IMG/VR virus record: IMGVR_UViG_3300008448_000586 | Coordinates: 1 to 25,017 of that record | Reading direction: 5' to 3' (one strand) | Source of the DNA: a virus | Taxonomy: Duplodnaviria; Caudoviricetes | DNA length: 25,017 nt | Shown here: positions 9,001-23,194 of the stretch, in pieces | How the letters are laid out: each line of letters opens with the position of its first letter | How positions within the stretch are numbered: the first letter of the stretch is position 1 | Notes under the pieces: model-generated | What the model was told of the DNA's origin: nothing | Database searches by the model: none | Seen by the model: the letters and a program-made list of their open reading frames with translations, nothing else | Translations under genes and position numbers: made by a program

Positions 9001-9892
9001 AACGATGGCAGTCGGTCGCCTGATGCGATCCATCGATTCGGTCCTGCGTGGAGTCGATCGCCAGATCATGCTGGTCGCATACAACGCGGCACTGAGTCAG
9101 TTGGAGCAGTCTGGTGCCACCGGCACTGCGCTGCTGGATGCGGCTGGCAAACTGGCTGAACGGTCTTTCCGTCACACGCAGAATGTCAGCGATCCTCTGG
9201 ACGATACGGTGTTCGCTGCAAACCAGAAGTTCAACCGTGGTATGGCTCGCGTGATGTTCCCATTCAGCAGCGATCCACTCAAGGCATTCAACCAGATGCG
9301 ACAGGCTTTCGGTTCTGGTGATGTCTCTCAGGTCGCTTCGACCAGCGGTGCGGTTGCAGCCAATATCGTGTGGAGTGCGGCGGTCAATCCGATCTGGACG
9401 GCAGCGGCGCTTGGCATTGCGGCGGCGTTCGATCCGGGCGATGATGACGAGGCAACTATCGAACTGCTGAGGAAGCGCGAAGGCGATGCAATGATCCGTC
9501 GTATGGCCGCTGATGCAGCCGGTGTGTCGGCTGGCTATGTTGGATTGCTGGCCTCTGGGATCATGGAAGCCATGATGTCTAACCCCCTGTACGCTTCGGA
9601 TGCTGGAGAGCCTCTTGCTATCCGTGCGATGGGAGACCTAGCGGTTGCTGTCGGAAGCGGCAAGTACGGTTCGGCACTGGCTACATCGCTGCAAATGGCT
9701 GGCGTGCCGGTGATCACTCCGGGTGGTCAGATCATCTCAACGATTGCGGCAGTAAGGCCGGATCGCGACAAGTTGCTCAGCCAGTATCGGTTGATGAAGA
9801 AGGAAGGCCGAATCACGCCGGAACAAGAGGACAGGTTGGCGGAACTCTTGCAAGAACAACGACTTGCGAAGTTGGCCGAGCAAGCCAAGTAA
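2..9892 (+). CDS. Giant phage internal-virion/ejection-type 'polyvalent' protein (>3285 aa, probably 5'-truncated by the window edge)
   Basis: The frame is open from base 2 (PGGKADTSQFG-M35) to TAA 9890-9892. It has an Ala/Gly-rich hydrophobic N-terminus, coiled coils, a zincin-like segment (EEALH), a WYE..SP..GxKTNSFYxNL..TMDMW..QVQAAIW domain, two ART-like domains (HFS.., VFHGT..WFT..VYL..GHDGI..PTQIKS), an EELQSDW domain and a helical C-terminal region typical of large virion proteins. Confidence 0.85.
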   Translation, partial: PGGKADTSQFGMRAIGGAVTGLAQEVATAPFLGAGPIIRELTTSADKTLTPERMMALGEASAQEFADRSSGGFMSQALYGATTSLTGKAAAIVRGTSMVAPGTGFEAFARGAQEVAAPRLDTVTTNVASAVTQGAASVGTYAIAGPWATAVSTFAEGAGAQMYQYEQEYLAGGLAKQKAGDELDRFDQYRSALLSGVVTSAFETYGGKMITGTVGRAVRKMDLKVANPVWQFTKPFIGGAGIEAFEEAGTQLVSEQAIPLVTKQKRPTINESAYNAMIAGLYGAVGGIGGTAAALPGAIAGRQQQIAQLNDRLRKSNTEYAQDDFWDKVAPAKVQSMMGMNQQEREAEIEATREAALQAIQARETLKQQAAMVQNERRAAEQDLAKARRKKKADLVTAAETKIADLTTQLDAMQQPLAVAAADAAAAELAYDASVAFMARNAAPVTTTVDDSLRTQNATAAQAKTDADNKALTELTNLGFDVQFFEGGNPNAPAYYDPAVPNTLFVRNGTTNVAEVMGIAYEEALHGIQYSDGRLWSELRQMPDESGVVESAARYFNEQANPEDIAAREALENVANPTGVSATPGQAVTRRYGSALNVSEGTANELRDGIETLFRTGEAPGLLGSVIARMGLRGRQAATAFRIRQKMLAAKSTRQRTGLSKFGTQLVEAKTGIQAREELKAEAQRRMAATSTTTAPAAPAAPATPSTPAGPVSPARARRSDIGHKREKATGRYVGAPDWVGGDPAKLKQLRKKLRQLATEGEAGRMWYENSSRAILKIAGGDIDEAEKIVALIAIYSPNATVPANTSMALTAYFQWKAGQAINAGFSKADAKAEAVLRKNEGWSGVKTNSFYQNLMVEIDPKRLDEGVATMDMWMALAFDYGDKALDQGPKYRFSEREIQRLADELGWKAHQVQAAIWTAMKGRIDPIRPALREEELKRGIGRMVEKTDPKTGKTTEVYEIAADRRYDHFKLAHQMGMEYALNTQDIESSKYDFSDAIEERMAQMSWETTPSTATGRSLPGIHRATLAQKQEYLRAMLDATTVNGKDAIADMVGLPQEYRIEGFSAWDSVIGAGMQSMYPVALEGAKAKRTIKPAAKEVLELIASIRGFVYEQDAVPYHTPIWDDSKIRHNGVQITSSRPFTADEMQMLYDGLIKQFGTNQLAPGYRLDGVRVLNFVDNLSNKDFQNGIKLVVDSLPDDFGGGMLTVGSFRSEGDYIYNDWTKDSNGEGYIQRITSRRPDLLTRVNDLRAVVERVNSDFASRYGWGPVTSYRGQRTGTVVSGSRGSRSAQAVFASNLRIASEYGTAIEGSSRPIRAIHFSAQPRTALKSRFYGTGMPGEERSYVRIKDRVYFYVDEGNGVVPEDMVGAHAHGVILRNVYSTSTDPLGLYSAADDKHDDDRTMWNAFERSVVRAGFDGIYVKSAQDEQGVVVLLGNHTVTPDYFGMERDLRGKSRAQKRPISADWQAVDVASYARERTDTPEFKAWFKDSKVVTALGTPRVVFHGTSKDVDFKSFRVGARGAWFTTDAEDAGFYAHENDSKSTKLEWDATRGRLIGRDINTASRIFPVYLSIQNPATITDQETNEMRMAENYPAVQRRVFEKYRLAGHDGIELPFPGGSVWVAFKPTQIKSIFNRGTFDVSQTNVSYARQRDETAPPAQFLSALREAIRSAQPVTGTSQMWSQWLRSMVNKGVVKQDELFWSGIEQWINLTPRKISKADLYDFLNKQGMQITTRSLLTKQDVPSNQAVDSRDLARYGPDLFPTQTLTAYPFSNYREHIMVIPQRRVDGGVTTGEQFQKQGATVDIIDWNPETKKAKFNIYFNNRMDFYGDGNVDPIFESEPTELDILNRYALRIAGTQRVSPSEQFTSSHHEFTSTPGQVVVHYRTTDREIDGKSYLFVEELQSDWAEKGRSLGFRTGTEKQELKRARDAQSQTRRILDTALTQQFYNAIDKLQAAILKSTASQMGEIPQDDGFNRVQRFKATLRNDIFDVLTQFNNNNWYQLTRLLQERAGRNAEYIFEQERIGGYFDLPDLKSFFTPRETDIIRRYAFTQSTYAGRFETTEKIQKRLPSGPFVKSTDQWVTLGLKQIIMQAVNEGYDGVAFINGAQSASRNEARGEAESVSYAPARTPQGDVIPNKYEIVSMVLGMPTGPAQNLSIEQISVAFGPDVVQMIQAGSGAQSAANADAKILGRPEGFTTRMVGGSQWFDYYDKIVRLNAQKLLRKIDGPEIKTVTLNGAYARDTQMAFDITNAMETKVRRGLTMFARARRGQESLAFQMGRRSGQVAGMMRGREQGIREGVTRQKAVELAKRREMRAKFAQRVQRFEDRIEQDSDKIAGLRDRMREMRELALDTRIRDRTAALDAARRKVLKAWFAGQSKGSQQGFNQAKREMVEMRRDALEIIKMLPKSMRSNYLNALTEMRTVTGISKIAQRVVQDLATADALDVVNQIGGMTKRVRKAGLRNDTRDDINGLLDSARSLLVTGQKRLLPFTTTVDLRNRTAAAIDLVEQAIGMYESERQEFRDSRDARSMEFDQDAGDLATTLAGQRGLPNERLASEAPRPGLARQIISGIGNLDIYSLMQRLEGSETGVLGKIWSGLIAGKDAMTKQRRRIDSRIDAALRRAGFDGYDGYAASAAGLYGDATAETVEVQIAGEMRRITVDQMMHLAALDDETVAGLRDESDPETPASPIVFATYRYEDPMYLTKQEQAAIVAGLSPEQRTLIAELKQLLETEIQPTLFEVHFQNVGKQPDRVVNYFPRQRLGDEVAGELVDVNLQPGQVVTGMLQNAGMLQTRVASRAPLVIGGMVRTLDGHIDEALRVIHLSAPLRHAVTVLRRRGVRANIERILGRGANDAIRKLVMNGAGMSGRPTGDIVETINSNISGAVLTMNPKTWIRQLGGAFRLMSEFPMQHWAAGMARTIALLPSDRARQIREIEDRNGYFYERHRRSQVGLFANVLGDPKAGREKWSAAIAAIGRALSTAGQDIAAGQWMRAATDVKQGTMAVGRLMRSIDSVLRGVDRQIMLVAYNAALSQLEQSGATGTALLDAAGKLAERSFRHTQNVSDPLDDTVFAANQKFNRGMARVMFPFSSDPLKAFNQMRQAFGSGDVSQVASTSGAVAANIVWSAAVNPIWTAAALGIAAAFDPGDDDEATIELLRKREGDAMIRRMAADAAGVSAGYVGLLASGIMEAMMSNPLYASDAGEPLAIRAMGDLAVAVGSGKYGSALATSLQMAGVPVITPGGQIISTIAAVRPDRDKLLSQYRLMKKEGRITPEQEDRLAELLQEQRLAKLAEQAK

Positions 9893-9893
9893 G

Positions 9894-9930
9894 CGTGAGG
9901 ATCCGTGAGGATCCGTGAGGATCCGTGAGG
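9894..9930. repeat. 10-bp tandem repeat (CGTGAGGATC)x3.7
   Basis: Read directly: cgtgaggatc cgtgaggatc cgtgaggatc cgtgagg, immediately after the stop of the giant ORF. Confidence 0.95.
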
Positions 9931-9957
9931 CTCTGCAAGAAATTTGATGATGCATTC

Positions 9958-9988
9958 TTGCATGTACGATACAAGTGTGTATGATGCA
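9958..9988 (+). promoter_or_regulatory. Sigma70-like promoter of the RHH gene with tandem TGTA-N3-TACA operators
   Basis: TTGCAT(9958-63)-16 bp-TATGAT(9980-85), ATG 7 nt downstream. TGTACGATACA at 9963-73 and TGTATGATGCA at 9978-88. Confidence 0.65.
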
Positions 9989-9992
9989 CACC

Positions 9993-10241
9993 ATGAGCAA
10001 GCGCAAGAAGAGTCAGGTTCCAGTGCACCGCAACACGCCGTTCGTTTATCTGGCGGTGCATAAGACCGTGGCAGACCGCATTCGATCTGCCGCATCAGCC
10101 AGCAAGACTCGCATATGCAATCTGCTGGAAGATTGGTGCAACAAGCAATTGCCTGCCGATGAACCGGGCACCGACGAACCGATCGTTGTGACGGGTCAAG
10201 GCGACTACCAGACTGTGATTCGACCCAGTGATCTCGCGTGA
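9993..10241 (+). CDS. Ribbon-helix-helix (Arc/MetJ/CopG-like) DNA-binding protein, 82 aa
   Basis: Basic N-terminus, then a strand FVYLAV, helix KTVADRIRSAASAS and helix RICNLLEDWCNKQL, the RHH pattern. Start taken at ATG 9993, just behind the -10 box. Confidence 0.6.
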   Translation: MSKRKKSQVPVHRNTPFVYLAVHKTVADRIRSAASASKTRICNLLEDWCNKQLPADEPGTDEPIVVTGQGDYQTVIRPSDLA

Positions 10242-12179: not shown

Positions 12180-12219
12180 GGGGGGTGAGGCTCGACGGTG
12201 CCTCACCCCCCTTTCATTT
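12180..12219 (+). terminator. Rho-independent terminator
   Basis: 12-bp stem GGGGGGTGAGGC/GCCTCACCCCCC, 8-nt loop, followed by TTTCATTT, 10 nt after the annealase stop. Confidence 0.8.
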
Positions 12220-13877: not shown

Positions 13878-14313
13878 GTTTGCACCAGTAGCATCGACGG
13901 CAGTGGACCACCTGCGGATCATCCTGCCCCTGCCCAGCATCGAAGGATCGAACAGTCGATCGCACTGGTGCGTTCGTCAGCGTTCAGCGAAACTGGACCG
14001 GTTCGCCGCCGCCGTCGAGGCAAGGATCAAGGGCGTTCCATGCCCACTAACTAATCCAGTAGTTGTTGTGGACTGGTACTGCAAGACCAAGCGAATGCTG
14101 GACTGCGACAACGCCCTGTCTCGGTGCAAATCCTACATCGATGGCCTGACCGATGCCGGTTGGTGGATCGACGACAAACAGATCAAGACGATGATCGTTT
14201 CTGTTTACGCCCCCGGAGAGGGGGCTGGGTTCAAGGGCCGAGTCGTCATCACCGCAATCGAGAGGCCACCAAAGTCGTCAGGATTGCTCAGGATCGATCC
14301 GTCGTTTGGATGA
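13870..14313 (+). CDS. rusA: RusA-like Holliday junction resolvase
   Basis: LPLPS..N..HW at the N-terminus and DCDNALSRCKSYIDGLTDAGWWIDDKQI, matching the RusA DxDN..K..D..DD catalytic pattern. Confidence 0.8.
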   Translation: MIEFAPVASTAVDHLRIILPLPSIEGSNSRSHWCVRQRSAKLDRFAAAVEARIKGVPCPLTNPVVVVDWYCKTKRMLDCDNALSRCKSYIDGLTDAGWWIDDKQIKTMIVSVYAPGEGAGFKGRVVITAIERPPKSSGLLRIDPSFG

Positions 14314-14317
14314 CCCT

Positions 14318-15052
14318 TCAGGACATCCTGCCTGCGATCTTCGATCCTGAAGCCTTCTGCTTCGTCTTGTTCATCCGATAGCGCACAACGGACTGTGGCT
14401 CACGAGCCGATGCGGTGTTGTCGGTCAGGGTCTTGGCTGTGTCGGATGGTCGAATGCCCTTCCGGCCCCACTGGTCGCACGCATAGCGCCATGCATCACG
14501 AATGGTGGCATCATCGCATCCGACCTTAGACAACTTGCTGACCAGATACTTGCGCTGCCGTTCGACGACATCGGCCAGCGAATGCGCAGGCTCGCGGTCA
14601 GCGATCCGTTGCATCGCCGCCTCTGAAATCAAACCCTCCCCCACCCCCTCCCCGACAGGGGAGGTTGTAGTTGTGGTTGTAGTTGTGGTTGTGGCACAGT
14701 CACTGTCACAGTCACTGTGGCTGTTACTGCGACGGTCATTGACCCGTTGAATGTGGGCGCGGCGCTTCTCAGCGATCTGATTACTGCGTGCCTTCTCGGC
14801 CAGCAGCCGGGGGTGTGCCCAGCCATCAGAGTGGCGAACGAGACGGCGCATGATGCACTCCCAATCCACGCCAACAGACCCGCCAGCGATTCGATCTCTG
14901 GATGCGGCATCGTCGGGAATAAATCCACTCAGCCACTGGTGACTGAGCAGTCGGATGTATGCGCCAGCCGTAGCGGGCGACATGTCCAGCGTGCTAGCGA
15001 GGAAATCGCCGGGGTAGAACGCAAACCACGGCAGTCGATTCGGTATACTCAT
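14318..15052 (-). CDS. Phage replication initiator, DUF1376/YdaU-type N-terminal domain
   Basis: LPWFAFYPGDFLASTLDMSPATAGAYIRLLSHQW..IPDD, then HPRL..EK, a low-complexity linker (SDCDSDC, poly-Thr) and a helical C-domain. Confidence 0.78.
   Translation of the reverse strand: MSIPNRLPWFAFYPGDFLASTLDMSPATAGAYIRLLSHQWLSGFIPDDAASRDRIAGGSVGVDWECIMRRLVRHSDGWAHPRLLAEKARSNQIAEKRRAHIQRVNDRRSNSHSDCDSDCATTTTTTTTTTSPVGEGVGEGLISEAAMQRIADREPAHSLADVVERQRKYLVSKLSKVGCDDATIRDAWRYACDQWGRKGIRPSDTAKTLTDNTASAREPQSVVRYRMNKTKQKASGSKIAGRMS
14664..14718. repeat. Short tandem repeats inside the initiator gene: (GTTGTR)x5 and (CACAGTCACTGT)x2
   Basis: Read directly at 14664-14693 and 14695-14718. Confidence 0.85.
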
Positions 15053-15138
15053 GTTCTTCCAGTGGTCCCTAGACCATTCGTGAATCCAGACAACGCCGTG
15101 CCACGAGCACGGCGTTTGTCTTTCAGTCGTAGTTCCAT
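15049..15138 (-). CDS. Possible 29-aa coupling ORF (MELRLKDKRR...)
   Basis: Bridges the upstream gene and the initiator (ATGA overlap at 15049-52). No clear RBS. Confidence 0.35.
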   Translation of the reverse strand: MELRLKDKRRARGTALSGFTNGLGTTGRT

Positions 15139-15449
15139 GTGAGAATGTTGCTGCATCGCCTGCGCGGCCTGCCTTCTGGCAGTGTCTGACGCATGCGCCG
15201 GGGCTTGTCTGCCTGCAATTGGGTTGCAGTCAGTGCTCCTGCCCCGCCCGGGAATGTTTCCCATCCGTAGCCGGTCCACAGGTTATCGTTCACCCGCATT
15301 GCTCCGCCGGTGTCCCAGTAGAACGCTTCAGTCCCAACCAGTACCACACGGTTGTTGACGGCCAGCGTGTTCGAGAACGCGAGCAGACTGTCCGCGTGCG
15401 AAACAGACGCAACGAACGAAACGAACGCAATGCTACAGAAACAACGCAT
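15123..15449 (-). CDS. Hypothetical exported protein, 108 aa
   Basis: Strong GGAGGT RBS. The N-terminus MRCFCSIAFVSFVASVSHA-DS resembles a signal peptide. Confidence 0.6.
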   Translation of the reverse strand: MRCFCSIAFVSFVASVSHADSLLAFSNTLAVNNRVVLVGTEAFYWDTGGAMRVNDNLWTGYGWETFPGGAGALTATQLQADKPRRMRQTLPEGRPRRRCSNILTWNYD

Positions 15450-15669
15450 GTGCCACCTCCAGCGCCCACTTGGCTTCATCACGGTTGCGTGCCGGTGGCA
15501 GTGCCTGCCTGATCTTGCGGAAGATCTTCCGCTCGATGCACATGACCTCGTCGCGAGTGATTCCAAGAATCTCAGCAACCTCTGATGGAGTGCGCAATGG
15601 CTTGATTCCGCACCATCGTGGATCGGATTGCCGGTGCATCCATGTAGGGGTCATTTTCATCTGCGCCAT
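15433..15669 (-). CDS. Small HTH protein resembling sigma70 region 4, 78 aa
   Basis: PLRTPSEVAEILGITRDEVMCIERKIFRKIR. AAGGAG RBS. Confidence 0.7.
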   Translation of the reverse strand: MAQMKMTPTWMHRQSDPRWCGIKPLRTPSEVAEILGITRDEVMCIERKIFRKIRQALPPARNRDEAKWALEVAHALFL

Positions 15670-15854
15670 TTGCGGAACTCCTTGTGTTCCTGATAGCAGC
15701 AGTCGCACAGAAGAACGCCGCGACGCTCGATCTTGGAACCAGTTTCAGGATGGACCCATGTGTACGGTTCAGACTCAACCCACTGATTGTGCTGCGACTG
15801 TCGGCAGCACTCGCACAGGTCGAGGAAGTGCGGAAGTACAACGGTGTTCGTCAT
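15657..15854 (-). CDS. Small Cys-rich putative zinc-binding protein, 65 aa
   Basis: CECC...CDCC motifs. GGAGGA RBS before ATG 15854. Confidence 0.65.
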   Translation of the reverse strand: MTNTVVLPHFLDLCECCRQSQHNQWVESEPYTWVHPETGSKIERRGVLLCDCCYQEHKEFRKWRR

Positions 15855-15855
15855 G

Positions 15856-16110
15856 TCAATCCTCCAATCTTCGGATGCGTTCACGAAGTCCGTCGGTCTC
15901 GACGACCAGCATCGTGTTTCGTTTCGCAAGCATGTCAGAAAGCCACGCTTCGTGCTTCGCTCGCTCTTCCCAGTGTTCTGCACGCTCGGTCAGCATCGCG
16001 TTGCACGCCTTCATCGTATTCAATTGCGTTCGCAGTGCGCCGATCTCGACCTGAGCCTTGATCAGTTTGCCAGTCAGCGAGTCGATCGTTTCGCTTGGTT
16101 TGTCAGTCAC
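15856..16110 (-). CDS. Hypothetical coiled-coil protein, 84 aa
   Basis: GGAG RBS, GTGA overlap with the upstream gene, heptad-like sequence. Confidence 0.65.
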   Translation of the reverse strand: MTDKPSETIDSLTGKLIKAQVEIGALRTQLNTMKACNAMLTERAEHWEERAKHEAWLSDMLAKRNTMLVVETDGLRERIRRLED

Positions 16111-16364
16111 TTGCTGGTCTCCGTTAGATAATCCCAGCCACGCTGCTTGATTTCCTTCTCTAGTTCAACCCAAGAACACCGTTCCTTGACCCACAACAAG
16201 ACCTCACGCCTTGCCGCATCGCGCTCCGCAACCAATTCGTTTCGCTCACGAAGCAACTGAGCGTGCTCCAGATGCAGTGCATCAAGTTGGTTGTGCAGTT
16301 CGGTGTATGTGCGCGAAGCCTGATCGGCCCACATCTTGACCTGATTGATCTCGCCCATGCTCAT
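16107..16364 (-). CDS. Hypothetical coiled-coil protein, 85 aa
   Basis: GAGGTG RBS, ATGA overlap, ERNELVAERDAARRE heptads. Confidence 0.7.
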   Translation of the reverse strand: MSMGEINQVKMWADQASRTYTELHNQLDALHLEHAQLLRERNELVAERDAARREVLLWVKERCSWVELEKEIKQRGWDYLTETSK

Positions 16365-16795
16365 TCGTCACCTCGCGTCGCTGGATGGCAGCGGTTCTGA
16401 TCTGTCTGGGTCAGTGACGAGAACGCCTCGTCGAAGTCTGACCAGTCTCCAGTATCTCGTGCAGTCCACGCGCTCGCGATCACATCTCGCAGGCGGTCTG
16501 CACGAGACTTCTGTGGAGTCCGAAACAGGTTTCCGGGAGGAGCGAGGACATACACCGCCGCCTTGTACCCGGCTCGTGTCTCGCGCTTCGTGCGGGTGCG
16601 CATCAGCACGCCGCGCAGCGTGAGCGCCGTGAACACTGGGCTGGCGCTCTGATGCGGGATGCCGGTGCGGGCGATGAATTCGTCGCAGGTGATTCCGTCC
16701 GACCCGACCCGCGTGATCATGTCGATCAGTCGGTCCTCGTTCGATTCGATCTTCGCACCGGCGTACGCCTGCCTGCTGGTTTCTCGGTAGGTCAT
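16361..16795 (-). CDS. Winged-helix DNA-binding protein, 144 aa
   Basis: TSRQAY..GITCDEFIARTGIPHQSASPVFTALTLRGVLMRT..RETRAGYKAAVY is a common phage wHTH pattern. ATGA overlap at 16792-95. Confidence 0.72.
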   Translation of the reverse strand: MTYRETSRQAYAGAKIESNEDRLIDMITRVGSDGITCDEFIARTGIPHQSASPVFTALTLRGVLMRTRTKRETRAGYKAAVYVLAPPGNLFRTPQKSRADRLRDVIASAWTARDTGDWSDFDEAFSSLTQTDQNRCHPATRGDE

Positions 16796-17001
16796 CCCAG
16801 CACCCCCGACATGATGATCAGCGCGAAGATGGCGATGGCGATGATGCCGCCGGTGTACATGCCACGGAAGAACCAGTCCGCCGCGCTCTCGATCTTCCGC
16901 TCCTGCGGATCTGCGACCTTCACGAAACGGATCACTTCGTCCTCGAACGCCAGATACTGGTTGTCCAATTTGCTGCGGGTTTTGCTGTAGTGGTTGGTCA
17001 T
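16792..17001 (-). CDS. Small membrane protein, 69 aa
   Basis: C-terminal hydrophobic helix GMYTGGIIAIAIFALIIMSGVLG. GAGGA RBS. Confidence 0.7.
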   Translation of the reverse strand: MTNHYSKTRSKLDNQYLAFEDEVIRFVKVADPQERKIESAADWFFRGMYTGGIIAIAIFALIIMSGVLG

Positions 17002-17015
17002 GGTTTCCTCTTCGG

Positions 17016-17393
17016 TCAAGCGGCCAGTTCAAGTTGAGAAATCAGCCCCATCTTTCGGCCACGAGCCGTGATGGTCACTTCGACTGCGTGCCGGTCATTC
17101 ATCCCGTTGTCGAGGTGCAGAATCCAGACGGTTCCGTAGCCCTTGGCCTTCGGCATGCGCGATGTCGGTGCCCAGAATGAACATGGGAACTTCCATTCCT
17201 TGCACAGCATCTTGGATGTCTTCGATGGCATGCGGAAACGGAAGTCGATCGAGAACTTCTCGTCGATGTCATCGCTCGAATGCCCGAACCACTCGCGATC
17301 GATGCGGATCCAACCGGCATCGACCAGCAGCGTGATCATGTCCTCGGATACGGATCGAATGTCTTCGATCAGGTTCAGCGAACTTAGTGGCAT
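17016..17393 (-). CDS. Hypothetical early protein, 125 aa
   Basis: ATG 17393 lies 5 nt after the conserved AGAAATTGGAGA leader. Confidence 0.75.
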   Translation of the reverse strand: MPLSSLNLIEDIRSVSEDMITLLVDAGWIRIDREWFGHSSDDIDEKFSIDFRFRMPSKTSKMLCKEWKFPCSFWAPTSRMPKAKGYGTVWILHLDNGMNDRHAVEVTITARGRKMGLISQLELAA

Positions 17394-17398
17394 GGTTC

Positions 17399-17456
17399 TC
17401 TCCAATTTCTGCCGGGTTGACCGGCTACAGGTTAGTGCATCCCGCGACGGTGCGGG
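17399..17456 (-). promoter_or_regulatory. Conserved early-gene leader, copy A
   Basis: Sense strand: CCCGC-ACCGTC-GCGGG ATGCACTAACCTGTA GCCGG-TCAAC-CCGGC AGAAATTGGAGA. Confidence 0.8.
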
Positions 17457-17491
17457 GCAGGCCAGCCCTTAGGCTGGCGAGCCGGGAACCG

Positions 17492-17695
17492 TCAGGACCA
17501 TGTGCTCACGATCATTCCCGTGTTCGTGATCGCACGCTGGAGGCGCTTGATCGAGATGACCCAGCCATGAGGCTTCCACGCCCATGCCTGCCTGATCGCG
17601 TCGTCCTCGTCGATCGCCCAGCAGTAGAACATCTCGCTGCGAGGCGAACCGTCCGACCCGATGATCAACCTGAATTCGTTCTTCTTGTCGTCCAC
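17492..17695 (-). CDS. Hypothetical early protein, 67 aa
   Basis: GTG 17695 lies 5 nt after GAAATTGGAGA. Confidence 0.7.
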   Translation of the reverse strand: MDDKKNEFRLIIGSDGSPRSEMFYCWAIDEDDAIRQAWAWKPHGWVISIKRLQRAITNTGMIVSTWS

Positions 17696-17700
17696 TGTGA

Positions 17701-17739
17701 TCTCCAATTTCGAGTTGCTGAATCCTGCAACGGCGCAGG
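17701..17739 (-). promoter_or_regulatory. Conserved early-gene leader, copy B (lacks the second hairpin)
   Basis: Sense strand: CCTGC-GCCGTT-GCAGG ATTCAGCAACTC GAAATTGGAGA. Confidence 0.72.
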
Positions 17740-17742
17740 CTA

Positions 17743-17766
17743 GGTGGCCCTCCGAAGAGGACCACC
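17743..17766 (-). other. Stable cUUCGg stem-loop after the DUF932 stop (no U-tract)
   Basis: Sense strand GGTGGTCCTC-TTCG-GAGGGCCACC. Confidence 0.6.
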
Positions 17767-17779
17767 GTAGCCAGCGTCG

Positions 17780-18784
17780 TCAAGCGACGAGCGCAGCAGC
17801 CGCCTCGTATGCGGCCTTGTTGAGATCTCCGGCGGTGCCGAAGAGCACACTGTCCAACCTACGCGAAGCGTCCTGCTTCTCGTTGCGCACCGTGCGCTCG
17901 TGGTTGGCGTCCTGCGTGACCGCGTTGAGCGCCGCCCAGACCGAGCCGCTCGTGCTCACGCCGGTCTGGCGCTTGTCGTCGCGGAAGTTCGCCAGCCACT
18001 GGGACACCTCACCGGCGTACTTCTGGGCACGGCGGCTCTTGGGGTTCTTGATGTCCTCGTCGGTCAGGCGACCGTTCGCACGCTGCCACACACTCGTGAA
18101 GAACGCCTGCAACTGCGCCTCAGTGATGCCCTGTTCGGCCATGCGGATGGCCGTCGCGCCGTACGCCTTGATCGACGCGGTCGGACCGGCCAGCCACTCG
18201 CGCACCTTCGCCAGACGCTGCTCTGCGCTGGCCGTGTGCTTGATCTTCACGCAATCGCCGTTCATCTCGCGCATCGCGATGGCGTGCGTGTTCGCGCAGA
18301 CGACGCGGGTCGCGATCGCCCCGATGGTCAGGCTCATGCTCAGGTCGTGCCCGCCGCCGATGAACAGATAGGGCTTGATCTTGTCGTCCGCAGCCGCGTA
18401 GATCGTGCCCATGTCCACGAGGAACCACACCTTGCGGCCACCGCGCAGAGACCCGGCGGTCTCGACTGCGCGATCGCTGAAGTTGCTGATCTCGTACGCC
18501 AGATCCGCGATCTCGGCATTCTGGATCGGCTGGTAGCCGTCCTTGCACGCCGCGAACGCCTCGCCGGTGTCGCTGCGGACCACCAGCCGGTTGTCGCCGC
18601 CGTCCACCGTGCGGCCATCGGTCAGGGTCGCGGTGACCGGGGCCACCTCGACCGTCCACTCCAGCCGCGCCGTCTTCAGCGCGGTGATCGCGTCGGTGCG
18701 GGTCGGGAGCACGGTGCCGAGACCGTGCCAAGCCTTGGTTCCGGCGAGCATGAGGTGGTCAGTGGCTTCGATGTGATGTGCCAT
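17780..18784 (-). CDS. DUF932 family phage/plasmid protein, 334 aa
   Basis: AWHGLG..ARLEWTV..RSDTG..YQPIQN..ETAGSLRGGRKVW..HD.S..RVVCANT..KHT..WAALNAVT. ATG 18784 follows the conserved leader. Confidence 0.88.
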   Translation of the reverse strand: MAHHIEATDHLMLAGTKAWHGLGTVLPTRTDAITALKTARLEWTVEVAPVTATLTDGRTVDGGDNRLVVRSDTGEAFAACKDGYQPIQNAEIADLAYEISNFSDRAVETAGSLRGGRKVWFLVDMGTIYAAADDKIKPYLFIGGGHDLSMSLTIGAIATRVVCANTHAIAMREMNGDCVKIKHTASAEQRLAKVREWLAGPTASIKAYGATAIRMAEQGITEAQLQAFFTSVWQRANGRLTDEDIKNPKSRRAQKYAGEVSQWLANFRDDKRQTGVSTSGSVWAALNAVTQDANHERTVRNEKQDASRRLDSVLFGTAGDLNKAAYEAAAALVA

Positions 18785-18791
18785 GTGAGTG

Positions 18792-18854
18792 TCTCCAATT
18801 TCTGGCCCTGAGGGCCGGGGTTGAGTGAGGTCGAGACTCGACGGTGAGCCTCGA
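18792..18854 (-). promoter_or_regulatory. Conserved early-gene leader, copy C
   Basis: Sense strand: TCGAGGCTC-ACCGTC-GAGTCTCGA CCTCACTCAACCCC GGCCC-TCA-GGGCC AGAAATTGGAGA. Confidence 0.82.
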
Positions 18855-18857
18855 TGC

Positions 18858-18889
18858 TGTACGGTACACCATGTATCGTACAGAGTCAA
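18858..18889 (-). promoter_or_regulatory. Sigma70-like early promoter with two TGTA-N3-TACA operators
   Basis: TTGACT(18889-84)-17 bp-TACCGT(18866-61). Palindromes TGTACGGTACA 18858-68 and TGTATCGTACA 18872-82. Confidence 0.75.
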
Positions 18890-18918
18890 GAACTATCTGG
18901 ACAATTTCCAGACGGATT

Positions 18919-18952
18919 CTTGGGAGGCCACCCCTAAGGGTGGCGACCCAAG
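18919..18952 (-). terminator. GC-rich stem-loop, possible terminator or processing stem
   Basis: CTTGGG-AG-GCCACCC-CTAA-GGGTGGC-GA-CCCAAG, 10 nt after the stop at 18963. No U-tract. Confidence 0.45.
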
Positions 18953-18962
18953 CCCCCGCCGG

Positions 18963-19346
18963 TCAGGCAGGCTGGGACTGCACTCCGAAACGGTGGTAGC
19001 ACAGGCGCTTCAGGACATCGCGCAAGGTGCGGGTGTTCTCGTCGATCCGCTGCTTCAGGTGCTTGATCTGATCATGCAGCCAGAGTTCCGATTCGCGCTC
19101 CGCATCGTGCATGAGCGCCATAGCCGCCTTCGCGTGCGTCAGGCTCACTGCGGCGTTGCGGAAGGTGGGGTACAGGTCGTCGTCCACCTGCGATCGGTCT
19201 TCCCCGACCATCAGGTCGAAGGTGCTGCCCACGAACATGAGCACGGTGGACTGGCGATCTTCCTTGCTGGGGATGAGAGCGATGTTCTCGATGATGCAGA
19301 TGATCTGCTCGATGCGGGCGAGGTTGTAGTTCTGGGGCAGTGACAT
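18963..19346 (-). CDS. Hypothetical early protein, 127 aa
   Basis: ATG 19346 (MSLPQNY...) follows the conserved leader. Confidence 0.75.
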   Translation of the reverse strand: MSLPQNYNLARIEQIICIIENIALIPSKEDRQSTVLMFVGSTFDLMVGEDRSQVDDDLYPTFRNAAVSLTHAKAAMALMHDAERESELWLHDQIKHLKQRIDENTRTLRDVLKRLCYHRFGVQSQPA

Positions 19347-19351
19347 GGGTG

Positions 19352-19407
19352 TCTCCAATTCTGGGCCGGTGGCCCTTGGGTTGAGTGTCATCCTGCGACG
19401 GTGCAGG
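19352..19407 (-). promoter_or_regulatory. Conserved early-gene leader, copy D
   Basis: Sense strand: CCTGC-ACCGTC-GCAGG ATGACACTCAACCCAA GGGCC-ACC-GGCCC AGAATTGGAGA. Confidence 0.82.
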
Positions 19408-19449
19408 GGATCGGGGCGCGACTGCCGTGCGCCCGTCACCCTTGAATCG

Positions 19450-19827
19450 TCAGGCAGCGGCCACCTTGGGCTTGCTGTACCGCACTGCGGCCAGCGCGTC
19501 ACGCTCGATCTGCTTCGCGATGCCGGAGAGCCACTTGGTGCGGGTCTGGGCTGGGAAGACATTCGTCTCCAGACCCATGTGGGCCTCCAGCACCTCGCGG
19601 GTGAGCGCCTCGGACATCTCCGGCTGCTCGTCGAGCCGGTTGAGCACGGCGAGGCGGAACTGCCACTCGTCGATGTTCTTCGGGGTGATCGTGCCCATGC
19701 CGACCGCCATCGTCAGCCAGATCAGGTTGTGGGTGGTTCCGCGCAGTTCATCCACCCCGGGTTCAACTTCGCGCAGGCAGACGGTGCGGTAGTCAGCGAT
19801 CTTCGACAGGTTCCAGTTCAGGCTCAT
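19450..19827 (-). CDS. Hypothetical early protein, 125 aa
   Basis: MSLNWNLSKI..LIWLTMAVGMGTITPKNIDEW..R..HMGLETNV. Follows the conserved leader and a promoter. Confidence 0.8.
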   Translation of the reverse strand: MSLNWNLSKIADYRTVCLREVEPGVDELRGTTHNLIWLTMAVGMGTITPKNIDEWQFRLAVLNRLDEQPEMSEALTREVLEAHMGLETNVFPAQTRTKWLSGIAKQIERDALAAVRYSKPKVAAA

Positions 19828-19833
19828 GTGAGT

Positions 19834-19870
19834 TCTCCAATTCTGCCCCTGTGGGGCTTCGGGTTGAGTG
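19834..19870 (-). promoter_or_regulatory. Conserved early-gene leader, copy E (starts directly at a promoter, no ACCGUC hairpin)
   Basis: Sense strand: CACTCAACCCGAA GCCCC-ACA-GGGGC AGAATTGGAGA. Confidence 0.8.
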
Positions 19871-19902
19871 TGTATTGTACAGAGTGATCAGTGAGTTGTC
19901 AA
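19871..19902 (-). promoter_or_regulatory. Near-consensus sigma70 promoter with one operator over the -10 box
   Basis: TTGACA(19902-897)-17 bp-TACAAT(19879-74). TGTATTGTACA at 19871-81. Confidence 0.85.
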
Positions 19903-19930
19903 GTACCTGATTCCTGAGTTGCTGCGTGGG

Positions 19931-20158
19931 TCAGTTCCACTCGATGATGTTGTTCACGATGCTGACGGTGTAGTCGCGACCGTCCTCGACGCGGCGCTGA
20001 TGAGCGACGCGGGCGGAGTCTTCGTGGTGGGTCTTCAGGATCACTTCCTCGTTGCCGTATGTGTCGCGGGCGACGACCCAGAACGGGGCGCGGTTCTTGA
20101 TCGTGCGGCACTGCACGGGCTTGCTGCGGCCACCCCAGATGATCGATGCGTTCTTCAT
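19931..20158 (-). CDS. Hypothetical early protein, 75 aa
   Basis: ATG 20158 lies 5 nt after the conserved leader. Confidence 0.72.
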   Translation of the reverse strand: MKNASIIWGGRSKPVQCRTIKNRAPFWVVARDTYGNEEVILKTHHEDSARVAHQRRVEDGRDYTVSIVNNIIEWN

Positions 20159-20163
20159 GGCTG

Positions 20164-20217
20164 TCTCCAATTTCTGCCCCTGTGGGGCTGTGTTGCGTTG
20201 TCCTGCGACGGTGCAGG
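20164..20217 (-). promoter_or_regulatory. Conserved early-gene leader, copy F
   Basis: Sense strand: CCTGC-ACCGTC-GCAGG ACAACGCAACACA GCCCC-ACA-GGGGC AGAAATTGGAGA. Confidence 0.82.
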
Positions 20218-20254
20218 CCGTCCCGCCCCCGGAGGGGCGGTGGGGCGCGATCCG

Positions 20255-20338
20255 TCAGGGACGCGAGGCTGCGTAGATGGCGAGGGGGATTCCGACGAAC
20301 ACGAGCAGGATCGCGATGGTGGTGATGGTGGGCATCAT
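20255..20338 (-). CDS. 27-aa single-pass membrane peptide (not in the ORF track)
   Basis: AGAAAGGA RBS, 7 nt, then MMPTITTIAILLVFVGIPLAIYAASRP*. Fills the gap between two early genes. Confidence 0.65.
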   Translation of the reverse strand: MMPTITTIAILLVFVGIPLAIYAASRP

Positions 20339-20356
20339 GGTGTGGTCCTTTCTGGT

Positions 20357-20728
20357 TCAGGAGATGCGGGTAGACACGATCGGTGCCTTGGCCTTGATTA
20401 GCGTGTTGCGAATGCCGTCCAAGGTCTCGTTGCCGTTGCGGCGGAACATGTTCAAGTCCTCAGCGTCCGCTGCGCAGCATTGTTCGGCAATGTGCTTGAG
20501 TGCCTCGATGTGGTACAGCAGGGACGCAGCCGTGGTTCCGGTGATGATCTCGAAAGCCTTGGCCCAGACGGTCGCCACCTTCATCTGGTTGATTTCATTC
20601 CAGATGTCGGATGAACCTCGAAGGGCACAATCCTCTGACCAGTTGTGGCTGATGTTGAACATGCGATACTCAAGGTTCTTCGACAGAATCTCAATCTGGC
20701 TGCTTGCGAACTGGTTCTTGGTCTTCAC
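20357..20728 (-). CDS. Hypothetical early protein, 123 aa (first gene of the leftward module)
   Basis: GTG 20728 lies 5 nt after the conserved leader. Confidence 0.72.
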   Translation of the reverse strand: MKTKNQFASSQIEILSKNLEYRMFNISHNWSEDCALRGSSDIWNEINQMKVATVWAKAFEIITGTTAASLLYHIEALKHIAEQCCAADAEDLNMFRRNGNETLDGIRNTLIKAKAPIVSTRIS

Positions 20729-20733
20729 TGGTG

Positions 20734-20790
20734 TCTCCAATTTCTGCTGGCCTTGCCAGCCCTTGTTGCGTTGCCAGCCACGCGGCTGAC
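20734..20790 (-). promoter_or_regulatory. Conserved early-gene leader, copy G
   Basis: Sense strand: GTCAGCC-GCGT-GGCTGGC AACGCAACAAGG GCTGGC-AAG-GCCAGC AGAAATTGGAGA. Confidence 0.78.
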
Positions 20791-20793
20791 ATG

Positions 20794-20824
20794 AGTACTG
20801 TACACCCTGTATCGTACTTGTCAA
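20794..20824 (-). promoter_or_regulatory. Sigma70-like early promoter with two operators
   Basis: TTGACA(20824-19)-16 bp-TACAGT(20802-797). AGTACTGTACA 20794-804 and TGTATCGTACT 20808-18. Confidence 0.78.
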
Positions 20825-20963
20825 ATCAATTACTTCAACAAACCAACCAGATTGTTGGCAATAAAGTCGCAAGTGCAGCATTTACCTATGTTTCTGGAGC
20901 CGAGAAATTTCTGAGCATGTGCCCAGATGACACCGGCCACAGGGTTCTGGTAGGGTTGAAACC

Positions 20964-21428
20964 ATGAGCGAAGCACAGCAGCCAGTGAAGCGTGGACGAG
21001 GCAGACCACGCAAGGAACAGGCACACGAAATTGCGGCATGTAAAGAGCGGTGGTTGCAGGAGTTCCGTGCTCATGGCTGGAACCGTGCTTGCGAGATCGT
21101 TGGCATCAGCACGCACACTCCCTCGTCGTGGCGCGGCAGCGACCCGGCCTTCCGCGCTGCGCACGATGCCCTGAACCCGCTCATCGCCGACGGGCTGGAG
21201 CGCATGATCGAAGAGGTGCTGACAGGCAAGCGCCAGATGGACAAGGTGCAGATGACCCTGCTGATCTTCCGGCTGAAGGCGCTGCGACCGGCCCTGTACC
21301 GCGAGCGGTGGAGTGTCGAGCACAGCGGCCCAGACGGCCAGCCCATCAAGGTCGAGACCAACGGCGACCAGCAGCGCGGCATGGATCTGCTCCAGCAGTG
21401 GGGCGGTCGGCTCGCTGGCAAGAACTGA
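20964..21428 (+). CDS. terS: Terminase small subunit
   Basis: AT-hook-like GRGRPRK, HTH (RACEIVGISTHTPSSWRGSDPAF), LLIFRLKALRPALYRE and EHSGPDGQPI. Directly upstream of TerL. Confidence 0.8.
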   Translation: MSEAQQPVKRGRGRPRKEQAHEIAACKERWLQEFRAHGWNRACEIVGISTHTPSSWRGSDPAFRAAHDALNPLIADGLERMIEEVLTGKRQMDKVQMTLLIFRLKALRPALYRERWSVEHSGPDGQPIKVETNGDQQRGMDLLQQWGGRLAGKN

Positions 21429-21454
21429 ACAACCCAGCAGCACCCCTCCCCCCT

Positions 21455-23194
21455 GTGACCAAGCAGCCCCGACCGGAAGCACGCTCGCTCGTCACGATGC
21501 GAGAGCGGGTGCTGCGGGCTACACCAGCCGAACAGGCCCACCTGCGTGCGGCGTTTGCAGCGTCATTCCCCGCATGGTGCGAGGCCACGGCGTGGACCTA
21601 CCGTGTCAAGAACATCGACCCAGAGACGGGGCGCGAGATCCCAGCAGCGCAGATGCATGTGCCCTTCACCCTGTGGCCCTGCCAAGTCGAGGCCAGCGAG
21701 GCCATCATCGACGCGATCAGCAAGGGCGAAGACTGCGTGATCCGCAAGAGCCGAGACATGGGTGCATCGTGGCTCCTCGTGGGAATCGCAGCGTGGGGCT
21801 GGCTCTTCCACGGCTGGCAGTCCCTGCTGGTCAGCCGCGTCGAAGACCTCGTGGACCGCACCGGCGACCCAGACACGCTCTTCTGGAAGGTGGACTACCT
21901 GCTCGCCTCCCAGCCGGAGTGGCTGCTACCGGCCACGCCCAAGGCGCTGGAGAAGGGCGGCGAACTGCGGCAGCACATGATGCTCCGGCACCCCACGAGT
22001 GGGGCGACCATCGCAGGCCAAGCCAGCACGGAGCACATCGGGCGCGGTGGTCGTCGCACGCTGGTGATCTTCGACGAGTTCGCTGCCCTCGACCATGCCG
22101 ACGCAGCGTGGCGCAGCGCAGCCGACTGCACCTCGTGCCGCATCGCCAACAGCACGCCCATCGGGGCAGGCACGGAGTACGCCCGCCTCGTCAGCACAGC
22201 CCGGACGCAGGGATCGCCCCGGCTGGTGGAACTGATGTACTGGCAGCACCCAGAGAAGGGCGCAGGCCAGCAGGACCGCGAAGACACGGACGGTGCCATC
22301 ACCGGCATGGCAGGGGCGCAGTACATCTGGACCCCGTGGTTGCAGGACCAGTTGAAGCGCCGCGACCGGATCGACCTGTGCCAGAATGTCTTCGCCGAGT
22401 CGATCGGCAGCGGGCAGGCGTTCTTCAGCAGCCACGCCGTCACCCAGCACCGGGAGGACCACGCCAAGCCTGCGGTGCGGTGCGAGTTCAGCCGGGGCAA
22501 GATGGTGCCCAGTCCCAGCGGCAGGTGGCGGGTATACCAGCAGCCGACACGGGCGGCGGAGTATGTCTGCTTCATGGACCCGGCGTACGGTACAGGCGCA
22601 GCCAACAGCGCCGTGTGCATCATGGACGCTGAGACCCGCACGGTGGTGGCCGAGTTCATCGACCCCAACATCGCCACCTACGACCTTGCCTTGGAGGTCG
22701 CCCAGATCCTGCGGCGCGTCTACAGGGGGCGGAGGGAGGCTCTGGTGGGGTGGGAGACCAACGGACCCGGCGCTGCCCTCCAGCACGACTTCGAGCGGGC
22801 CAACTACAAGACGATCTACCGGCAGCGTCAGACTGGCACCAAGCAGGAGGAGAAGACCATGCGGGTGGGCTGGACCAGCACCAAGCGCACCAAGCGGGTG
22901 TTGCTAGGTGGACTGGCGCGTGCACTGGCGCAGGGTGAAGTGGTCATCTCCAGCGCGGACTGCCTCGACGAGATGCTGGAGTACATCGTGCTGGACGACG
23001 GGAGCATCGAGGCTGGTTCAAGGCGAGACGATTCGAGCGGCGCACGAGAATCTCATGGCGACCGCGTCATAGCCACCGCTGGAGCACTTATGCTATGCGA
23101 CGAGGGTGTTGGTGAGCCAGCGTCGGCCCCCCTGTACGAAGAGAACACTCTTGGTGCTATCTTGAACCACGAGGAGATCATGCGTGGCGACTAA
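21455..23194 (+). CDS. terL: Terminase large subunit (start uncertain: GTG 21398, GTG 21455 or ATG 21497)
   Basis: LWPCQ adenine motif, Walker A KSRDMGASW, GRGGR..VIFDEFA Walker B, STPIG coupling motif, nuclease motifs FMDPAYGTG, WETNGPG and HGDRVIA. Confidence 0.92.
   Translation: MTKQPRPEARSLVTMRERVLRATPAEQAHLRAAFAASFPAWCEATAWTYRVKNIDPETGREIPAAQMHVPFTLWPCQVEASEAIIDAISKGEDCVIRKSRDMGASWLLVGIAAWGWLFHGWQSLLVSRVEDLVDRTGDPDTLFWKVDYLLASQPEWLLPATPKALEKGGELRQHMMLRHPTSGATIAGQASTEHIGRGGRRTLVIFDEFAALDHADAAWRSAADCTSCRIANSTPIGAGTEYARLVSTARTQGSPRLVELMYWQHPEKGAGQQDREDTDGAITGMAGAQYIWTPWLQDQLKRRDRIDLCQNVFAESIGSGQAFFSSHAVTQHREDHAKPAVRCEFSRGKMVPSPSGRWRVYQQPTRAAEYVCFMDPAYGTGAANSAVCIMDAETRTVVAEFIDPNIATYDLALEVAQILRRVYRGRREALVGWETNGPGAALQHDFERANYKTIYRQRQTGTKQEEKTMRVGWTSTKRTKRVLLGGLARALAQGEVVISSADCLDEMLEYIVLDDGSIEAGSRRDDSSGARESHGDRVIATAGALMLCDEGVGEPASAPLYEENTLGAILNHEEIMRGD

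Follow-up and report, generated by a model that had tools for sequence, protein, structure and literature searches.

Why should a small hairpin with the loop ACCGUC recur five times in a leftward cassette of small phage genes? An initial annotation of the window, by which we mean the whole 25,017-nt stretch analysed here, had described a conserved ACCGUC loop on freely varying stems and proposed a loop-specific protein or nuclease site, acting in N/nut-like antitermination, in cutting the early transcript or in 5'-end protection. All five hairpins are present on the minus (coding) strand (Table 1), and neither strand of the window holds a further RCCGTY-loop hairpin with a stem of at least 5 pairs. 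The number expected by chance is 0.1 rather than 5: over 1000 resamples from a first-order Markov model, 17000-21000 held 0.10 on average (maximum 2) and the whole window 0.54 (maximum 4). Other details of that description also held, namely the compensatory U-A to C-G change, a G-U pair that functions on the coding strand only (-14.0 against -11.1 kcal/mol), the four post-stop GC stem-loops, none followed by a U-tract, and the placing of the fifth copy at a predicted transcription start, 6 nt past a -35/-10 pair as checked on the 100%-identical locus L183. Two hairpins in the table, the second promoter-proximal one and the terminator-like one, were absent from it. The cassette, which we take to be early from its sigma-70-type promoters, has a AATTGGAGA Shine-Dalgarno sequence at seven gene starts, and upstream of each stands a predicted promoter or one of the elements described below.

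Table 1. Features of the window, in window positions; the small hairpins with ACCGUC-type loops are given under the element to which they belong.
Feature	Position	Strand	Details
Full element 1	20202..20259	-	Small hairpin 20202-17; stop 20255-57; model R2 55 bits; 5' arm a 20251-55; J 20247-50; P2/P3 hairpin 20217-46 (UNCG loop); b 20213-16; loop 20207-12; b' 20202-06; between 27-aa ORF (20255-20338) and 75-aa ORF (19931-20158)
Full element 2	19392..19454	-	Small hairpin 19392-407; stop 19450-52; loop 19397-402; R2 45 bits; 125-aa ORF ends at its stop; 127-aa ORF (18963-19346) downstream
Full element 3	17724..17784	-	Small hairpin 17724-39; stop 17780-82 of DUF932 gene; R2 34 bits; loop GCCGUU; P3 UUCG-capped
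Full element 4	17441..17496	-	Small hairpin 17441-56; stop 17492-94; loop 17446-51; R2 43 bits; ahead of 125-aa ORF (17016-17393)
Promoter-proximal hairpin, B form only	18831..18854	-	9 bp; loop ACCGUC; ahead of DUF932 gene
Second promoter-proximal hairpin	20773..20790	-	Loop GCGU; closing pair C-G
P2/P3-type post-stop hairpin without b/b'	18913..18965	-	Gene downstream with separate promoter and 5' hairpin
Terminator-like 12-bp hairpin	12180..12211	+	After putative single-strand annealing protein gene (ORF ends 12169); loop UCGACGGU
Small-gene cassette, leftward	17016..20728	-	Divergent from terminase genes
DUF932 gene	17780-18784	-	Within the leftward cassette
Predicted sigma-70-type cassette promoter	20797..20824	-	GTACGATACA box at 20808-17
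Predicted sigma-70-type promoter	18861..18889	-	-35 18884-89; -10 18861-66; GTACGATACA box in spacer; consensus match only, score under the promoter-scan threshold
Predicted sigma-70-type promoter	19874..19902	-	Ahead of 125-aa ORF; no 5' hairpin after it

In four of the five cases the hairpin merely closes, on the 3' side, a larger element of about 60 nt that starts at the upstream stop codon. Because the hairpin loop is complementary to bases at that stop codon, the post-stop stem-loop and the small hairpin form a single element with two folds. The two predicted folds are mutually exclusive, fold A being a long irregular hairpin in which the loop is buried against the stop-codon bases, and fold B the small hairpin. 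In fold A of element 4 the loop is fully paired with the 5' arm, and in element 3 the U-A to C-G change is matched in the 5' partner. The family set comprises 50 distinct elements from 27 phage records, with some counts made on 53 or 55 elements. Positions 2-5 of the B stem are paired in 51, 52, 46 and 45 of 53 elements (0 of 2000 shuffles each), in related sequences whose registers the parser sets by pairing, which biases the H1, P2 and B counts towards structure. For fold A, 80.1% of the cells of a MAFFT alignment of related sequences (n=50) are paired against 65.0 when shuffled and 40-46% when slid, with 119 two-sided changes against 53.6. The b strand also covaries with a second partner (J3, 39 of 53, 0 of 2000 shuffles), and since it covaries with two partners the folds are mutually exclusive. 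Fold A was predicted for 41 of the 50 uncut elements and fold B for 4, a modelled cut 5 nt before the loop gave fold B in 50/50, and B was favored over A in 16/50 when the stop codon was taken as the start of the folded RNA.

Identity among the elements drops to 53% while compensatory changes preserve the structure, and the P3 loops are of GNRA/UNCG type in 30/50 on the coding strand as compared with 5/50 on the antisense strand, a bias from which we argue that the element probably acts as RNA on the coding strand. Both observations bear on the proposal that the elements are only recombination joints for early-gene swapping, similar to PeSLs and with no RNA role. In its favor, the genes that come after one and the same element differ between the window and the related record G001, and stop and Shine-Dalgarno contexts are common to all spacers; however, preservation of structure at 53% identity is the opposite of what homologous recombination needs, the tetraloops are RNA-type and coding-strand biased, and we regard this proposal as scarcely probable. 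The PeSL cassettes of T4-like phages do resemble the present case in being repeated intergenic modules beside variable small early genes, but a PeSL is a terminator stem-loop joined to a promoter (PMC4122927; see also PMC2839356). No promoter match was found inside the four window elements and no terminator-like site in 17000-21000. The family also lacks the U-tract of an intrinsic terminator, the 10 nt that follow B holding 0-4 U in 50/50 elements.

With some reserve, we favor the explanation that the elements are T7-like RNase III sites, at which a cut leaves a 3' hairpin on the upstream message and a 5' hairpin on the downstream one. Of the functions first proposed, early-transcript processing with 5'-end protection fits best and is retained in conditional form. 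From the sequence, the position, the covariation of both folds and the distribution across the family, together with the predicted folds, we infer the cut, the enzyme, the cut position and the protection as follows. Fold A would form first on the element at the stop codon, burying the ACCGUC loop, and close to the conserved mismatch its 3' arm would then be nicked by a double-strand ribonuclease of the host, RNase III being the likeliest. The upstream message would be left with the GC-rich P2/P3 hairpin as its 3' end, and the downstream message would refold to hairpin B at its new 5' end, where the hairpin would protect the end and may be read by a host factor. Messages born at promoters would carry the same hairpin type from the start, so that most cassette genes would have a C[R..YGU]G-type hairpin at the 5' end.

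The elements lie between genes of a polycistronic region, early as judged above, and the fold A arm (24-32 nt, median 27, with mismatches and bulges, one position being unpaired in 45/50) spans about two helical turns, as in RNase III substrates. In the window, P2/P3 is retained and b/b' dropped (18913-65) ahead of a gene with a promoter of its own, and G001 and G005 have a counterpart of this hairpin in the corresponding position. P2/P3 and B are present and a clear 5' arm absent in three elements (L229:7578, L230:7928, L240:3711), and three other elements retain B despite a promoter downstream. According to PMC1540722, internal loops confine cleavage to one strand, leaving a protective 3' hairpin, and E. 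coli RNase III favors A-U in the proximal box; positions between double cuts are paired in about 90% of sites (PMC6212723). In the lower arm an A-U pair is conserved in 41/50 elements and a U-A pair in 34/50, and the P2 side is almost all G-C/C-G. Against the model, a G-C-rich P2 side would be disfavored by the E. coli proximal-box rules, if these hold for the assumed host RNase III, and the pairing between double cuts in most sites also speaks against it. Several mismatches in the lower stem count against it too, as do the elements noted above that lack a clear 5' arm or retain B ahead of a promoter, the 16/50 in which B was favored over A, and conservation of the loop sequence, which a plain protective hairpin leaves unexplained.

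The early RNase III sites of T7, of the R1.1 type, provide the closest comparison. They too are irregular hairpins between early genes with an upper stem, an internal loop and a lower stem, and 2 of the 4 T7 post-gene hairpins also begin at the stop codon of the preceding gene. Cut once, such a T7 site leaves a 3' hairpin (PMC1540722, PMC8708148), and the RNA past the R1.1 cut, whose position we took from PMC8708148, folds into a 5' hairpin of predicted -6.8 kcal/mol. The T7 lower stems are AU-rich, whereas those of the elements described here are GC-rich; the 3' arm of the elements has a second covarying partner that gives a defined 5' hairpin, their loop motif recurs at promoters, and their cleavage is predicted. 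In S. aureus, RNase III cuts a long hairpin in the 5' UTR of cspA, after which the RNA on the downstream side folds a shorter, stable hairpin at its 5' end and lives longer (PMC3386247), as in our model; that case differs in being a single chromosomal leader with a double cut, with no intergenic repeats and no tie to a stop codon. The early mRNA of phage SP82 in B. subtilis, mentioned in PMC4838370, is another phage mRNA cut by host RNase III. If the RNase III model is true, one cut would yield two protected ends, processed messages would receive the same 5' hairpin as promoter-born ones, and the phage would have a compact means of tuning its early genes one by one. A predicted cut region and a set of natural compensatory variants both come from the 50-member alignment.

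The same two folds could also operate without any cutting, as a translation-coupled switch in which the terminating ribosome unzips the 5' arm, B forms and the loop is displayed, a host factor then reading it as a sign that the upstream gene is translated and conferring stabilization or protection from Rho-type termination. In 45/55 elements the 5' arm begins where the stop codon ends, give or take 1 nt (-1 to +1). When such a ribosome is mimicked by masking the stop and a further 6 or 9 nt, the prediction changes to fold B in 45/50 and 47/50 respectively; little energy separates the folds (median -2.1 kcal/mol), and promoters keep the loop motif. However, no output of such a switch was found: only 3/48 show a shift in Shine-Dalgarno accessibility above 0.2, the gap from the end of B to the Shine-Dalgarno sequence is 9-37 nt, and no U-tract follows. 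Several copies, among them orthologues of window element 3, have their stop 6-9 nt farther upstream, and hairpins abutting stop codons also occur in T7. We consider this alternative rather unlikely; direct control of ribosome binding was discarded because Shine-Dalgarno access is unchanged.

Conservation of the ACCGUC loop on freely varying stems stood only for the nearest clade; among relatives found through the terminase there are 15 loop forms of 4-8 nt (55 elements; consensus C[RYNG(U)]G). Matches to model R2 sit, by coordinates, in leftward small-gene cassettes, with one weak match inside a gene. Since the element is also present in phages with hardly any proteins in common with the window phage, such as G003, where 1 of 92 ORFs matches any other record, a host factor is indicated. 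In phage lambda the N/nut boxB is a small hairpin with a partly fixed loop in the early transcript, and sites of this kind for a phage N-like antiterminator would account for a small hairpin with an invariant closing pair and a partly conserved loop, one copy of which directly follows a promoter. Unlike boxB, the loop is of variable length and not near-invariant, it is buried in fold A in 4 of the 5 copies, and there are several elements per operon. The 10 small proteins of the 25-kb window fragment have at most 4 Arg per 12 residues, which leaves no Arg-rich partner among them, no protein is common to all element-bearing phages, and the most widely shared ORFs are absent from G003 and G008. 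Given this variation in the loop and the lack of a shared N-like protein, the antitermination part of the initial annotation was dropped, and we judge it very unlikely. DUF932 as the cognate factor was likewise discarded, for the complete genome G012 has elements and lacks it. A hairpin promoter for a virion RNA polymerase was also rejected, as the 3285-aa protein matches ART-PolyVal and DUF7178 rather than a polymerase.

The elements could also be small self-cleaving ribozymes of a new kind, severing the polycistronic message unaided, since they are multi-copy, intergenic, phage-borne and structured. In 14000-21500, however, no Rfam match was found beyond three chance ones (E 1.8-3), and the 50 sequences have one invariant and six near-invariant columns, nearly all in helices. 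A pseudoknot was ruled out because its would-be helices share nucleotides and 4-nt loops exist. Taken together, a ribozyme appears highly improbable.

A hand-written descriptor proved unspecific (1420 matches against 1319 in reversed controls) and covariance models were used instead, and a gapped pattern scan of viral contigs gave 86 stretches, mostly chance, with a stem of at least 5 in 6 of 76 distinct matches. Two spacers had no blastn match among cultured phages. In the search for a host, GTDB genomes yielded no terminase relative, cultured phages reached at most 33% identity, and an 18-nt pattern matched 77 stretches in GTDB, none convincing (best R2 score 27.8 bits). A literature search found no description of the element, which the supplementary motif tables of large phage-RNA surveys could hold.

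The loop-specific role first proposed survives in part. The loop covaries with the 5' strand that it pairs with at the stop codon, and in uncut RNA it should lie buried according to the fold predictions. Yet the closing C-G pair is invariant (53/53), and a YGU loop persists in partner-less promoter-proximal hairpins whose stems are quite unlike one another (25 of 30, hand-picked), so that the loop seems to be selected in its own right. The ACCGUC loop of the hairpin at 18831..18854 recurs at the same gene on a different stem in G005 and G009. This promoter-kept loop, together with its complement after the annealing-protein gene, hints at a reader of 5' hairpins. A kissing contact in trans, in which the hairpin after the annealing-protein gene pairs with the element loops and the rightward recombination transcript tunes or shuts off the leftward early messages, could add to processing. 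The nearest relatives keep the exact complementary loop after this gene, which the RNase III model leaves unexplained. The loop of that hairpin complements the ACCGUC(G) loops over 7-9 nt (free-duplex energies of -16.6 to -19.5 kcal/mol, loop constraints ignored), its G-U pairs function on the sense strand, and a CGACGG-containing loop occurs on different stems in the window, G001, G005, G011/G012, G014 and G015. On the other hand, a hairpin with a complementary loop was found at only 6 of 75 annealing-protein loci and in 0 of 12 other element-family records (the G025 reading being unreliable), while G014 and G015 retain the loop without the element or a convincing partner hairpin, and we think this contact quite unlikely. 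Similarly doubtful is the broader reading that the loop is a conditional badge, buried in uncut or untranslated RNA, displayed only on mature 5' ends, whether these arise by promoter, cut or terminating ribosome, and read in trans; in the nearest clade the reader would be the hairpin that ends the exonuclease/annealing-protein transcript, by way of its complementary loop. If true, one RNA end would address all early messages, an RNA-only early-to-middle phage switch.

All five small hairpins with an ACCGUC-type loop described in the initial annotation are present, against chance means of 0.10 (region) and 0.54 (window), and none of 1000 resamples reached five; Rfam contained no match. The element is larger than the hairpin first described: each of the four copies away from a promoter has a loop complementary to bases at the stop codon upstream of it. 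Folded from the stop, the RNA is predicted to form one long irregular hairpin (fold A) consisting, in order, of a 5′ arm (a), a J segment of 4-5 nt, P2, a small loop and a tetraloop-capped P3. Fold B, the small hairpin, uses strand b and the loop, which in fold A face J and pair with a, respectively.

The exact 16-nt pattern retrieved 49 viral stretches, among which, besides close kin, seven loci of unrelated phages carry the whole anatomy. To avoid motif-based selection, 64 loci were fetched via terminase kinship, and spacers were read in 46 of them. From 63 hand-picked and six motif-found candidates, seven were excluded before parsing (six CCGAUA-loop copies misread by the parser, and L192:7682), one was unparsed and six were duplicates, leaving 55; pair counts use 53 of these, and energies and the alignment (A5) use 50 from 27 records, five mis-parses having been removed. 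Across 1.03 Mb of phage records, a model derived from A5 gave 77 matches, which concentrate in small-gene cassettes and score higher on the coding strand; records G013-G016 contain none, and additional copies were found on metagenome contigs. The CCGAUA-loop copies, outside all counts, apparently follow the same logic with a different sequence.

The loop takes 15 forms of 4-8 nt with the consensus C[RYNG(U)]G. Positions 1-5 of the B stem are paired in 53, 51, 52, 46 and 45 of 53 elements, counts that, like those below, are biased towards structure because pairing decided the register and the elements are related in sequence; at most five pair types occur per position, and 0 of 2000 shuffles did as well at positions 2-5. 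Pairing of loop with 5′ arm is found at positions 1-5 in 45, 44, 29, 51 and 49 of 53, the third being a frequent mismatch and the second no better than shuffles because it is nearly invariant. J3 pairs with b in 39/53 (shuffles 0/2000), J having played no part in register setting, and J4 is unpaired in 47/53. On a MAFFT alignment, 80.1% of fold A is paired versus 65.0% when shuffled and 40-46% when slid. Literature searches covering main texts found no published description of the element; the contribution here is three-way covariation across 50 elements, the loop motif common to elements and promoter-born hairpins, and a complementary loop in the oppositely directed operon.

Fold A is predicted in 41/50 elements and B in four when the folded RNA takes in 6 nt of sequence before the stop. 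Fold B is predicted in 45/50 when the stop and 6 nt are masked, in 47/50 with 9 nt masked, and in 50/50 after a modelled cut 5 nt before the loop; when folding begins at the stop itself, B is the more stable in 16/50. In these models the switch would leave Shine-Dalgarno access unaltered (shifts above 0.2 in just 3/48). None of the 50 elements is followed by a U-tract. GNRA or UNCG loops cap P3 in 30/50 on the coding strand versus 5/50 on the antisense, which argues that the element acts as RNA.

We favour, with moderate confidence, the reading that the element is a T7-like RNase III processing site. RNase III would cut near the conserved mismatch, so that the downstream RNA would begin at b and carry fold B at its 5′ end. 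The arm length of fold A fits such processing, and internal loops are reported to restrict cleavage to one strand, leaving a protective 3′ hairpin (PMC1540722). At the window site where the following 5′ end comes from a promoter, P2 and P3 are kept and B is absent, although B is kept before a promoter in three copies of relatives. In T7, two of four post-gene hairpins likewise begin at the stop codon, and the RNA after the R1.1 cut at position 5887 (PMC8708148) is predicted to fold a 5′ hairpin; S. aureus cspA (PMC3386247) is a tested precedent for processing with a 5′ hairpin. Against RNase III, the G-C-rich P2 conflicts with the box preferences of the E. coli enzyme, double cuts in vivo mostly flank paired positions (PMC6212723), no register was found for the +3 G contact (PMC9291653), and three elements lack the 5′ arm. 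That a terminating ribosome at the stop instead flips A to B without cutting is rather unlikely: the -1 to +1 spacing of the arm from the stop codon in 45/55 fits this reading, but such a switch has no visible output.

A hairpin follows 37 of 44 promoter matches. By manual tally, 17 of 22 picked as distinct have a YGU-containing loop and five do not; eight more chosen by hand, window 20773-20790 among them, all do. Promoter-proximal hairpins lack a 5′ partner. In related records G005 and G009, the hairpin ahead of DUF932 retains ACCGUC on an entirely different stem, two pairs of which fit the template strand better. Judging from these sequences, the loop would matter in its own right, besides its pairing in fold A. 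The proposed loop-specific recognition therefore survives in a looser form, with YGU usually kept where there is no partner but ACCGUC not fixed among the 15 forms. A phage-encoded reader is unlikely, because G003 shares 1 of its 92 ORFs with any other record, DUF932 is absent from G012, and none of the window proteins examined is rich in arginine.

Features of the window and of compared loci (L numbers)
Feature	Position	Strand	Remarks
3285-aa polyvalent protein	35-9892	+	ART-PolyVal and DUF7178 domains; weak PHROG endolysin match
Four tandem 10-nt units	9894-9933	+	Directly after 3285-aa gene stop, ahead of a promoter; possibly iterons or binding array
GTACGATACA box	9964-9973; 18872-18881; 20808-20817	+; -; -	In spacers of three putative sigma-70-type promoters; G001, G005, G009 have it too; likely a common operator
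82-aa ORF	9993-10241		Directly behind first GTACGATACA promoter; homologues in G005, G011, G012; candidate regulator
Terminator-like hairpin after annealing-protein gene	12180-12211	+	Loop UCGACGGU, complementary to ACCGUC loops
Leftward small-gene cassette with elements	17016-20728	-	Divergent from terminase genes
CACU(C/A)A(A/C)C motif	17430-37; 18820-27; 19380-87; 19863-70	-	Then short GC hairpin and Shine-Dalgarno; second repeated leader module
17-bp palindrome	18896-18912		Directly upstream of DUF932 promoter; related ones in G001, G005
27-aa hydrophobic ORF	20255-20338	-	Its stop codon starts element 1; possible small membrane protein
CCGAUA-loop subfamily	L210:8252, 7673, 7022; L211:4257, 3679, 3045	-	Divergent; AUCG partner after stop
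Longer post-DUF932 variant	L237:5110; L244:4120; L246:5850	-	Alternative hairpin overlaps 3′ strand of lower stem
RNA 3′ of R1.1 cut	L521 (T7 record) 5887-5927		Predicted 7-bp 5′ hairpin

The loop of the hairpin after the annealing-protein gene suggests a kissing contact with the ACCGUC loops, possible on sequence complementarity yet quite improbable. A CGACGG-containing loop is kept on differing, covarying stems in the nearest relatives (G001, G005, G011/G012, G014, G015), with G-U pairs that work on the sense strand. The contact is not general, however: the complementary loop occurs in 6 of 75 annealing-protein loci with a readable stop among the matches listed (79 examined, from 80 of 181 confirmed) and in 0/12 other element-family records, and it persists in G014 and G015, both without the element. 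A 14-nt complementarity to the promoter-proximal hairpin 18831-54 is confined to the window.

The window, a 25-kb piece of an uncultured tailed phage, otherwise encodes an exonuclease VIII-like gene, the putative annealing protein (so called for its location and C-terminal tail, with no family match), RusA and a DUF1376 gene, followed by the terminase and portal genes. Searches of cultured phages and GTDB genomes found no cultured relative or host. Seven starts in the small-gene cassette have the Shine-Dalgarno sequence AATTGGAGA in common.
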